Program-made: the position numbers and the translations under genes
Virus record (IMG/VR): IMGVR_UViG_3300036766_000644
Span: 112,685-176,684 of that record
Length of the DNA stretch: 64,000 bases
Source of the DNA: a virus
Reading direction: 5' to 3' (one strand)
Notes under the pieces: model-generated
Databases searched by the model: none
Told to the model about the DNA's origin: nothing
Seen by the model: only the letters and a program-made list of their open reading frames with translations
In this document: positions 9,154 through 10,846 of the stretch, in pieces
How positions within the stretch are numbered: the stretch's first letter is position 1
Layout: every line of letters begins with the position of its first letter

Positions 9154-10155
9154 TTATACCGGTTTACCGTCTACCCACAAACCCGTCGCGAAATCGTAGC
9201 TGAAAGAGTCAAGTGACCCTGCGACAAAAGCTGCAGGTGCGGTCTCTATTGTAGTCGCCGCCGTTGCCATCGACATGTTCTGGCTGACGCCGTTGCTCAG
9301 GTTGGCCTGGTGGATGGACTGCGCCGTGAAAAGGGCGCCTCGGGAGGAGCGGGCCATGGTCAGTGACCGGCTCGCCCCTACCGTCTCATCGTGGATCCCC
9401 GCCCAGGCTACTTTTGCGATCCCTGATTGGTTTGCGTTCCCTGCTGCGACCGCAGTGTCCGCGGTGAGGATCTCAAACCCGGTGGAGCTCTGGAAAGCCT
9501 GCGTTCCTACGATGGTGTAGCTCCAGTGCGTCCAGTGCCACGGCTCGTCTACGCTCGCCCCTTCCTTGTGGTCGAACCCGAACTCCCCGGCGAATCCTTT
9601 ACGGGTTCCTCCGATTTCGGAGTCGCCTGCCATCCAGATGTACGCCGCCGTGAGTTGCCGGGCGATGTACATGGGCTTAGTCATCCCGACGTAGATGTCC
9701 AGCGCGATCCCAGACTGGTGATTACTGAATCCAGGCTTCGCCGCGATTCCCAGTTTGGCGGCTACAGCTTTATTCTGCCGCTCGAGGTAGAGCTGGTTCT
9801 GGTACTCCCAAGTACGATACCCCGCAACGATTGGGAGGGAGATCCCGTCCTTGGCCGCAGCAGTCGCCATCATGATGTAGTCGTACGCGGTGTTCTTCTC
9901 CACGAGGAACTTACCGACGGTACAGCAGGTGATCGACTTCTTTACCCCCTTCACGTACCCCGTTTGCGCCGACTCCTGGAGCTGCGGCAACTGAACCAGC
10001 GGCGTGCTCTTTGGGGGCACCGTCGCATTACAGGAGACGAGCGCGTTTTGTACGCATCCGCTACCTACGGCCTGTAGCGTCGACATGGACGCCGTCGCTG
10101 AGCTTGTAGACTCATCCGACTGCAAGACGTTTACTGTCTCTACCGGGTCAGACAT
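9154..10155 (-). CDS. peptidase M15 / LAS-superfamily zinc D,D- or L,D-peptidase (tail-associated lysin or endolysin)
   Basis: The C-terminal half carries SNHQSGIALDI followed by DHKEG and EPWHWTHW. These are the H-x(n)-D and H-x-H zinc-ligand motifs of VanY/M15 peptidases. The N-terminal roughly 150 aa form a separate domain. Confidence 0.6.
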   Translation of the reverse strand: MSDPVETVNVLQSDESTSSATASMSTLQAVGSGCVQNALVSCNATVPPKSTPLVQLPQLQESAQTGYVKGVKKSITCCTVGKFLVEKNTAYDYIMMATAAAKDGISLPIVAGYRTWEYQNQLYLERQNKAVAAKLGIAAKPGFSNHQSGIALDIYVGMTKPMYIARQLTAAYIWMAGDSEIGGTRKGFAGEFGFDHKEGASVDEPWHWTHWSYTIVGTQAFQSSTGFEILTADTAVAAGNANQSGIAKVAWAGIHDETVGASRSLTMARSSRGALFTAQSIHQANLSNGVSQNMSMATAATTIETAPAAFVAGSLDSFSYDFATGLWVDGKPV

Positions 10156-10846
10156 GGTTCCCTGCCTGCGCTCGCTTGATCGCGGATTCGATGAGCGTCT
10201 TCTGGTAGCTGAGCTGCCCCTGCGTGATACCGAGCTTCTTCATGATGGCAGCACCAGCTAGCCGCGGCTTGCCTTGGTACCCCGCGGTGTACTCGAAGAT
10301 GCTCTTCTGCAGGGGTGTCAGGTCGTGGTAGATGAAGTCGGTGAGGTGGTCATCCACATCCTCTGACTCCGGATGATCCTCAGACTCCACGAACTCCTTC
10401 CGCTGGCTCTGCCGTTGGAACGTCTCCAGCTTCTTCACGCCCCACCCCAGGTGATCGGCGAGCTCTTCGTTCGTAGGCTCCCGCCCGTGCCGGTCCTTCA
10501 GGTCGTTCATCGCTGTGTGGTAGGAGTGGAACAAAAGATTCTTCGTCTCAGAGAGTCGTGCCGTGTTCTGCGTGGCGTAGACGACGCGTGAGAGCTTGGG
10601 CAGGCGGCTGGCAATGTACGTCGAGAGCGCCGCGCCCATGTCGGGGTTGTACGTCTCGAAGGCCTCCACGGCGAGGCGCTTGGCCTCCCCCTCGAGGTAG
10701 CTGCGGGACATGGAGGGGGCCCACTTGTTCACTTCTCGCAGGAGTAGAGGGTTCATCTGCGTCAGCAGCTTCTGGAGATCGTCGGGAGCTCGCGTCTTCT
10801 TCCAGCGGCGCCAGAGCTCGAGGTCGTTTGTCTTGAGCGGGTTCAT
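10148..10846 (-). CDS. sigma-70 family RNA polymerase sigma factor-like protein
   Basis: The region-2-like segment EAFETYNPDMGAALSTYIASRL compares with the consensus [18 protein letters not shown]. The region-4-like HTH is LTPLQKSIFEYTAGYQGKPRLAGAAIMKKLGITQGQLSYQKTLIESAIKRA. The in-frame ATG at 10846 overlaps the stop of the upstream 871-aa gene as ATGA, and this start is preferred over the track start at 10906. Confidence 0.5.
   Translation of the reverse strand: MNPLKTNDLELWRRWKKTRAPDDLQKLLTQMNPLLLREVNKWAPSMSRSYLEGEAKRLAVEAFETYNPDMGAALSTYIASRLPKLSRVVYATQNTARLSETKNLLFHSYHTAMNDLKDRHGREPTNEELADHLGWGVKKLETFQRQSQRKEFVESEDHPESEDVDDHLTDFIYHDLTPLQKSIFEYTAGYQGKPRLAGAAIMKKLGITQGQLSYQKTLIESAIKRAQAGNHV

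Follow-up and report, generated by a model that had tools for sequence, protein, structure and literature searches.

The window analysed here is a stretch of 64,000 nucleotides (64 kb) from a virus, positions 112,685 to 176,684 of IMG/VR record IMGVR_UViG_3300036766_000644, and all coordinates refer to this whole window. Its left part is occupied by a block of tail and baseplate genes in which the gene at 10148-10846, read on the minus strand, encodes what is almost certainly a divergent member of the sigma-70 family. It directly follows the gene of the baseplate hub, and the same arrangement recurs in a mostly uncultured lineage of large phages (~190 kb) whose members encode a bacterial-type RNA polymerase of their own. 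The genes and signals around it are the following.

82-19159, minus strand: co-directional tail/baseplate block of 19 kb with 15 called genes and gaps of at most 24 nucleotides (nt), the sigma gene lying mid-block (codon-usage gene map)
6669-8681, minus strand: Baseplate J-like (gp6-like) wedge protein, 670 amino acids (aa) (Pfam Baseplate_J, E value 6e-4)
8695-9147, minus strand: gp25-like sheath initiator/baseplate wedge subunit, 150 aa (PHROG 43, 1.4e-3)
9154-10155, minus strand: cell-wall hydrolase of the VanY/peptidase M15 type, filling the variable slot that directly follows the sigma gene (Pfam VanY, 1.4e-19)
10148-10155, minus strand: ATGTCTGA, an 8-nt overlap between the start of the peptidase gene and the stop of the sigma gene (read directly)
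10148-10846, minus strand: almost certainly a sigma-70-family factor, 232 aa (Pfam, family profile, AlphaFold2, Foldseek)
10843-10846, minus strand: ATGA overlap of the hub stop TGA and the sigma start ATG (read directly)
10855-10860, minus strand: Shine-Dalgarno sequence AAAGGA, 8 nt before the sigma ATG and within the end of the hub gene (sequence read)
10843-13458, minus strand: baseplate central hub/spike protein with gp27/VgrG/Mu gp44 fold, 871 aa from a GTG or 855 aa from an ATG at 13410 (AlphaFold2 and Foldseek)

The sigma open reading frame comprises 699 nt, that is 232 codons and a stop, and runs from MNPLKTNDLE to AGNHV, so that the protein of about 233 aa described in the initial annotation is present. 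A longer form initiated at a TTG (start at 10906, 252 aa) is unlikely because all homologues start at MNPLK or its equivalent and because the Shine-Dalgarno sequence precedes the ATG. The hub frame ends with CAG GAA TGA and the sigma frame begins with ATG AAC, and the coupling through ATGA to the 871-aa gene that had been proposed can be read directly from these letters. Tight or overlapping hub/sigma junctions are also found in related loci, and in 16 of 25 of them the sigma stop is overlapped by 1-26 nt of the next reading frame. With a GC content of 0.61 and a GC content at third codon positions (GC3) of 0.84 the gene resembles its neighbours and is therefore no recent insertion.

The large upstream gene had been called a hub protein, and its predicted structure agrees with this. 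The protein has no sequence match in Pfam, PHROG or the PDB, and its AlphaFold2 model (predicted local distance difference test, pLDDT, 77; predicted template modelling score 0.80) was compared by Foldseek. The search returned the phi812 baseplate hub at 2e-11, spikes of contractile injection systems, T4 gp27, Mu gp44 and VgrG; nearly all of its 43 matches at E<=1e-3 are hubs, spikes or VgrG proteins. Downstream of the sigma gene lies the M15 peptidase, just as first described, and then two putative wedge genes. Orthologues of the gp25-like protein give weak Pfam Sheath_initiator matches (0.0045-0.066), and the Baseplate_J orthologue of a closely related locus (L006) exceeds the Pfam cut-off with 24.2 versus 21.1 bits. 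PDB sequence searches with the Baseplate_J-like protein, and with two further window proteins of 1725 and 603 aa, returned nothing useful.

One of the cultured relatives is Salmonella phage Arash. The window hub is homologous to a part of Arash gp8, a virion protein called cell wall hydrolase, the gp25-like protein to the virion protein gp12 and the Baseplate_J-like protein to gp13. Altogether the block carries homologues of Arash gp4, gp6, gp8, gp12, gp13 and gp14, all of them detected by mass spectrometry as virion proteins, and the sigma gene is thus indeed embedded in a tail/baseplate operon. Within the 19 kb a consensus scan found no promoter of sigma-70 type, and terminator-like sites are no commoner than in shuffled sequence. 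The location in the middle of a gap-free structural block that shows no internal promoter or terminator signal supports late, translationally coupled expression of the sigma gene as the probable mode.

The cell-wall hydrolase function apparently changes place within this module. The Arash hub contains a lysozyme domain (gp8; locus L001, 8089-11586), the hub homologues P0415 and P0416 of some relatives include Glyco_hydro_19, and the window clade has the separate VanY/M15 gene after sigma. At the block's head 161 nt separate a 196-aa from a 77-aa reading frame (19160-19320, minus strand). This gap contains AGCCCUGCGG...CCGCGGGGCU, a long hairpin rich in GC that has a branched stem in its interior and is near-identical in the related loci L005 and L006; no U-tract follows and its folding z-score is only -1.8.

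Sequence and fold of the sigma-70-like protein

The sigma-70 assignment had originally been based on two peptides, one for region 2 (EAFETYNPDMGAALSTYIASRL, located at aa 61-82) and one for region 4 (LTPLQKSIFEYTAGYQGKPRLAGAAIMKKLGITQGQL, aa 176-212). The assignment itself stands, and the matches that support it lie far outside what chance would give. Pfam recognizes Sigma70_r3 at aa 111-172 (E value 2e-8, 34.7 bits versus a cut-off of 25.3), and the same domain is precomputed for most listed metagenome homologues. The Pfam models Sigma70_r2 and Sigma70_r4 gave no significant score on the window protein, and on its Arash orthologue gp10 Sigma70_r2 reached only 0.0036. The FliA/WhiG model of NCBIfam (TIGR02479) aligns with aa 58-175 at 2.6e-8 with 33.9 bits versus a cut-off of 189.6, and PHROG 351 (RNA polymerase sigma factor) matches at 3.8e-5. 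In architecture and size the protein is evidently group-3-like, yet it stands outside the FliA/WhiG subfamily.

Region 2 is recovered by the family profile and by the fold. A profile built from 47 family sequences and compared with the PDB found the RpoS and SigA chains of holoenzyme structures (1.7e-7, aa 55-173). Within this match, to which the E value applies as a whole, aa 55-100 align with RpoS/SigA regions 2.2-2.4, and AVEAFETYNPDMGAALSTYIASRL is placed on RpoS regions 2.2-2.3. A DPxxGxxLSTY signature is conserved across the clades of the family. In region 2.3 the window protein has S-R in place of the W433/W434 pair (YIASRLPK versus YATWWIRQ), but this pair is missing from many group 3 sigma factors too.

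The AlphaFold2 model is all-helical with a mean pLDDT of 80.7. Its predicted layout comprises sigma2 (aa ~1-95), sigma3 (~100-147), an acidic disordered linker (152-163) and a sigma4-like domain of four helices (164-229), the latter predicted with a pLDDT of 84-91. Foldseek against the PDB returned full-length matches to SigD, SigB, RpoS, SigA and WhiG over ~220-260 aligned columns that take in the C-terminal domain (best E value 2e-7, probability 1.00), and among the viral models of BFVD those listed matches that carry names are phage sigma factors. For region 4 the family profile runs in register with RpoS region 4 at a non-significant 3.9 bits; it is this alignment, together with the predicted fold, that suggests a region 4. 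An hhalign comparison of the family profile with one sigma-70 region-4 sequence aligned that sequence to the sigma3 helix-turn-helix and was uninformative.

Conserved gene order and the phage RNA polymerase

In a metagenome protein collection 222 homologues of the window protein were found, many of them on contigs of 168-196 kb, and a profile search at E<=1e-30 retrieved 185 sequences, each representing one cluster at 50% identity. Only four cultured phages carry a homologue (31% identity), namely Arash and the Vibrio phages D69, D148 and D181. Arash gp10 is the orthologue, with 31% identity over 95% of the protein and a family-profile E value of 1e-41. Cellular genomes gave one match among 185,579 species genomes, on a 1.7-kb contig of a metagenome-assembled genome. 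To judge from these searches, the family is phage-specific and essentially absent from cellular genomes. At the nucleotide level, megablast with 15 kb of the module found no match among 50,697 phage records. The "moraphage" lineage (PMC12619734) is an unrelated T4-like group without a polymerase.

In Arash and D69 the sigma orthologue follows the large gp8-type gene and precedes gp12, gp13 and gp14; Arash gp8, gp12, gp13 and gp14 match the window hub, the gp25-like protein, the Baseplate_J-like protein and a 753-aa protein. The three IMG/VR contigs closest to the window (3300045051_000909, 3300009169_000014 and 3300037493_005727; loci L005, L006 and L007) carry the entire module in collinear form, with the following identities to the window in L005, L006 and L007.

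Sigma factor: 83, 84 and 73%
Hub: 74, 60 and 49%
M15 peptidase: 51, 48 and 35%

Compared with hub and peptidase, the sigma factor is the best-conserved protein of the module in all three loci, and its gene is evidently under strong purifying selection. In a wider scan, based on a cross-clade sigma alignment and covering 25 IMG/VR loci, the order hub, sigma, variable gene, gp25-like and Baseplate_J on one strand was found in 19 to 21 of the 25, at sigma identities from 27% to 99%. The gene directly after sigma varies, being gp11-like in Arash and VanY/M15 or others elsewhere. The order hub, sigma and wedge apparently dates far back and characterizes a large lineage of contractile-tailed phages with genomes of ~150-210 kb.

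Some family members are considerably longer (390-700 aa), with the sigma domain at the C-terminus. According to Pfam their N-terminal parts are NUDIX (P0265), GNAT/FR47 (P0280, and P0276 below the cut-off) or LigD phosphoesterase plus ATP-dependent ligase (P0355). The gene of the GNAT fusion (P0280, ENA ERZ1426840) comes after an 890-aa gene, which it overlaps by 4 nt, and this place corresponds to the post-hub slot of the window. None of these N-terminal extensions matches Arash gp9 or any window protein. Injected "polyvalent proteins" have been described (PMC7824862), and the fusions with NUDIX, GNAT and ligase domains may recall them.

The same lineage encodes a multisubunit RNA polymerase. 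Arash gp206 (1525 aa) is a beta-beta'N fusion, a single chain in which Rpb2_3 and Rpb2_6 come before Rpb1_1 and Rpb1_2, with the catalytic motif AADYDGD; gp216 carries Rpb1_5 and represents the beta'C chain. Both genes are found just after the portal gene. D69, D148 and D181 encode the same enzyme at 56% identity, so that it is present in all four cultured relatives, and at least 45 IMG/VR contigs contain it. The Pfam Rpb1/Rpb2 domains score up to 1e-56. In D148 and D181 the beta-beta'N gene is interrupted by a homing endonuclease.

For the window clade a beta' motif scan with two-fold codons restricted to C matched two contigs carrying the window-type sigma gene, in which Pfam identified the beta-beta'N fusion and a 599-aa beta'C chain; a follow-up scan added a third. 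The "PTLM" variant of the motif matched only the Arash-like clade, because the window clade has PTLH, and an unrestricted NRxP[TS]L...D[FY]DGD scan had giant viruses and bacteria among the matches listed. Thus the polymerase occurs in all three closest contigs, with the order portal, beta-beta'N, beta'C and gp218-like as in Arash, 55-65 kb from the sigma gene and on the same strand. The proteins of this region are 30-38% identical to those of Arash. Among the 17 contigs with a sigma gene that reach 140 kb or more, pattern-limited scans detected the polymerase in 11, and none of the 17 was shown to lack it. In the window-clade beta-beta'N gene ~440 nt separate two collinear matches to Arash gp206 (L316/L317/L325, around 9361-9800), which suggests an insertion at residue ~590.

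The window itself holds one gene that in Arash belongs to the polymerase neighbourhood:

40114-41580, minus strand: SNF2-family ATPase, orthologue of Arash gp217 (Pfam SNF2-rel_dom and Helicase_C; 39.6% identity over 485 aa)

In Arash the gp217 gene directly follows that of beta'C. A RapA-like role has been proposed for polymerase-linked helicases (PMC7824862), and the window ATPase is a possible RapA-like partner of the phage polymerase. As the lineage encodes its own multisubunit polymerase, the likely partner of the sigma factor shifts from the host to the phage enzyme, and we consider this partnership probable. Arash has a second sigma factor, gp196, whose family carries Sigma70_r2 and Sigma70_r4. 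The best 120 matches of gp196 all belong to the Arash-like clade, with no window-clade homologue among them, and the window contains no sigma paralogue.

Particle composition, proposed role and alternatives

Particles of Arash purified on sucrose gradients were analysed by liquid chromatography-tandem mass spectrometry (PMC10585845). The following values were obtained for the proteins of interest.

gp10, sigma: 24 unique peptides, 100% coverage, 467 spectra for 234 residues (2.0 per residue)
gp206, beta-beta'N: 128 unique peptides, 3516 spectra for 1525 residues (2.3 per residue)
gp216, beta'C: 40 unique peptides, 1210 spectra for 606 residues (2.0 per residue)
gp217, SNF2 ATPase: 38 unique peptides, 1148 spectra for 472 residues (2.4 per residue)

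On these data the spectra per residue of the four proteins are nearly equal, and the portal with 1.5 is comparable. Likely carry-over enzymes yielded few unique peptides (primase 2, ligase 2, ribonucleotide reductase 11), and the second sigma factor gp196 is not among the entries in the available part of the virion table (PMC10585845). A virion-packaged sigma factor had been raised initially as the more speculative option. Through the detection of Arash gp10 it is now the better supported one, and by analogy with this orthologue we lean, with some reserve, towards packaging in the present phage as well.

The alternative preferred in the initial annotation was feed-forward control of late, lysis or fibre transcription. 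A search of 27 intergenic regions of the window by k-mer enrichment and expectation maximization found no shared promoter motif, upstream of late genes or elsewhere, but only A/T tracts and low-information patterns; without transcript 5' ends such a test is weak. Moreover, a sigma factor encoded in the interior of a 19-kb operon without gaps is unable to turn on its own operon. Feed-forward late control is therefore left without positive support. The one conserved block upstream of the structural operon has a single copy in the window. At 19940-19980 (minus strand), upstream of the 196-aa reading frame, the blocks GTTTATGTGGGCAACA and CCCTCCTTGTACCA are conserved in three contigs; they precede the first structural gene by 20-60 nt and are a candidate promoter, but have no further copy in the window. 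The candidates TTGTACC and GTTTAT..GGGCAACA from phylogenetic footprinting do not recur and were discarded.

On balance we favour, with modest confidence, a functional three-domain sigma factor of the phage polymerase that is made late, packaged in the virion and used to start transcription in the next host. Its gene, internal to the baseplate operon, would be transcribed late, with translation coupled to that of the hub protein. The protein would then bind the phage polymerase core, enter the virion and be delivered together with the DNA, whereupon the incoming holoenzyme could transcribe early genes without the host RNA polymerase. In Arash-like phages the second sigma factor of the gp196 family may later retarget the enzyme.

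Several observations weigh against this proposal. The Pfam models for regions 2 and 4 are silent on the window protein, and no early-promoter motif emerged from the intergenic regions. In the large open reading frames of the window neither Pfam nor PHROGs detected a polymerase domain; the enzyme is probably encoded beyond the left window end, as the three sister contigs with 73-84% identical sigma factors suggest. The Arash sigma factor is only 31% identical to the window protein. Furthermore, 116 of 252 Arash proteins were detected in the particles, enzymes of nucleotide metabolism among them, and the authors themselves allow for carry-over (PMC10585845). In the Twort-like phage fRuSau02 sensitive mass spectrometry also found a phage sigma factor, which its authors judged non-structural (PMC5618024).

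These last points bear directly on the possibility that the protein is an intracellular late sigma factor of the phage polymerase which directs it to late, lysis or fibre promoters in a positive feedback, the Arash signal being carry-over. The gene indeed lies in a late operon of a lineage with its own polymerase, the Arash preparation was not clean and the fRuSau02 case is a precedent for carried-over sigma factors (PMC5618024). Yet a mid-operon sigma gene is unable to initiate its own operon, no motif recurs upstream of late or other genes, and the polymerase genes reside in the head module beside the portal, which fits packaging. In Arash gp10 also has a density of unique peptides and spectra like that of portal and polymerase and unlike that of the probable contaminants, so that we regard this late intracellular role as rather unlikely. 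Even less probable is a classical phage sigma factor that redirects the host core in the manner of T4 gp55 or SPO1 gp28/gp34, the view originally taken. Sigma factors encoded by phages usually act in this way, and the fold is that of bacterial group 1-3 sigmas; in a survey of jumbo phages in 2021, sigma-encoding phages were also without their own polymerase and polymerase-encoding ones without a sigma factor (PMC7824862). In this lineage, however, a bacterial-type polymerase is encoded by each cultured relative and by each of the three contigs nearest to the window, and among 17 long contigs sigma and polymerase were found together in 11, the remainder giving no demonstrated exception. Apart from the single contig match the family does not occur in cellular genomes, and the window protein scores far below the cut-offs of bacterial sigma subfamilies.

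Finally, the protein could be derived from a sigma factor and have lost any role in transcription, acting for example as a DNA-binding or ejection protein of the tail tip. Its gene directly follows that of a VgrG-like hub, the Pfam models for regions 2 and 4 fail and the W433/W434 pair is replaced. This we consider highly improbable. The loss of the pair is shared with many group 3 sigmas, and the full succession of sigma2, sigma3, linker and sigma4, together with the DPxxGxxLST signature and an acidic linker resembling region 3.2, is conserved across clades. The protein moreover co-occurs with a polymerase that needs a specificity factor. What remains preferred is the packaged sigma factor of the phage polymerase.

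Further features of the window and comparison with known systems

Apart from the module and the ATPase gene the window contains several other features:

28129-28472, plus strand: full-length transfer-messenger RNA (Rfam RF00023, 107 bits; ARAGORN tag peptide ATHEQTRRGFSAR*)
28479-28552, 29173-29260, 29498-29571, 46427-46500, 46504-46576, 46584-46656 and 46948-47022: transfer RNAs, with a weak extra match at 29295-29358; seven or eight in two clusters (Met twice, Ser, Ala, Asn, Lys, Val)
30662-33361, plus strand: 899-aa protein with the major-vault-protein domains MVP_shoulder (5.5e-21) and Vault_3 (1.5e-11)
38948-39448, minus strand: HAD/PNKP-type phosphatase (1.7e-7)
42496-43140, plus strand: protein with an Api92-like ferredoxin-like domain (DUF1281_C, 2.7e-10)
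50091-52181, plus strand: rIIA homologue (PHROG 612, 2.5e-95)
52190-53386, plus strand: 398-aa gene in the rIIB position, with no Pfam match
58610-63787, 56799-58610, 55584-56648 and 53832-55568, minus strand: tightly packed operon for proteins of 1725, 603, 354 and 578 aa

The vault-like gene has the highest GC3 of the window (0.88), and in the phage database homologues of its product occur only in the uncultured huge phages LR756500, LR756501 and LR756503 of 462-735 kb (38-40% identity). The operon of four large genes is nearly without database matches, the single one being a weak match of the 603-aa protein to a "head decoration" PHROG; in locus L007 the C-terminal part of the 578-aa protein is present as a copy just upstream of the hub module.

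Among known phages Arash (OQ632216) comes closest. Its gp10 is annotated as "RNA polymerase sigma factor RpoS", the orthologues in D69, D148 and D181 being unannotated. In Arash as in the window the sigma slot lies between hub/hydrolase and the gp25-like and Baseplate_J genes, with tight junctions, and Arash has the same polymerase and SNF2 ATPase as the window clade. The clades are nonetheless deeply diverged: in Arash the hub has a lysozyme domain and the small genes gp9 and gp11 flank sigma, whereas the window hub is without a hydrolase domain and sigma is followed by a VanY/M15 gene of its own. That the gene encodes a sigma factor was already known, as it is so annotated in Arash and by the Joint Genome Institute, and its product was found in particles by the Arash authors. 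What is new here is the order hub, sigma and wedge across the lineage together with the link to a two-chain polymerase beside the portal. The Arash paper contains no mention of rifampicin and no analysis of the position or conservation of gp10 or of its link with the polymerase (PMC10585845).

The phages of the phiKZ/AR9 type also carry a multisubunit polymerase in their particles, with a proposed function in early transcription and a linked SNF2 ATPase (PMC7598289, PMC7824862). Their enzymes are highly divergent, consist of four or five pieces and have no sigma factor (PMC7824862). Unlike them, the enzyme of the present lineage is closer to bacterial RNA polymerase, comprises two chains and is accompanied by a sigma-70-family protein. 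T4 gp55, SPO1 gp28/gp33-34 and the SigF/SigG-like proteins of Bacillus phages and cyanophages share the sigma-70 fold and are the nearest viral structural neighbours. These factors sit in regulatory or replication regions and act on the host core. In contrast, the window sigma gene is a fixed internal gene of a baseplate operon in a lineage with its own core enzyme.

The virion RNA polymerase of N4 and the enzymes of crAss-like phages and of P23-45 offer a further parallel, since there, too, the particle carries transcription machinery that is produced late; in the Thermus phage P23-45 the polymerase, fused to the tail tape-measure protein, is physically a component of the tail (PMC10770324, PMC13434306). 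These enzymes are single-chain or tape-measure-fused and work without a sigma subunit. With the cargo of type VI secretion and other contractile injection systems encoded after vgrG, the likeness is in gene order alone, i.e. a sigma gene after a hub gene of VgrG/gp27 fold and enzyme fusions in the same slot. The fixed gene position after the VgrG-like hub and these fusions are also the reason for a more daring suggestion, which we hold to be doubtful: that this would be the first virion-borne holoenzyme of a multisubunit polymerase with a true sigma factor, the latter being loaded at the tail hub as cargo. If so, promoter specificity would enter the cell through the tail tip like a type VI effector, and from the start of infection the phage would be self-sufficient in transcription.

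For the annotation of metagenomes the gene order hub, sigma and gp25-like can serve as a marker of this lineage, and Arash, which grows on Salmonella Typhimurium, would be a tractable system for the assembly, ejection and retargeting of a packaged holoenzyme. In the jumbo-phage survey of 2021 carriers of sigma factors lacked a polymerase of their own, with two ungrouped exceptions that are not detailed (PMC7824862). Phages of the Arash type and of the window clade would thus bridge the two strategies known so far, sigma factor only and polymerase only.

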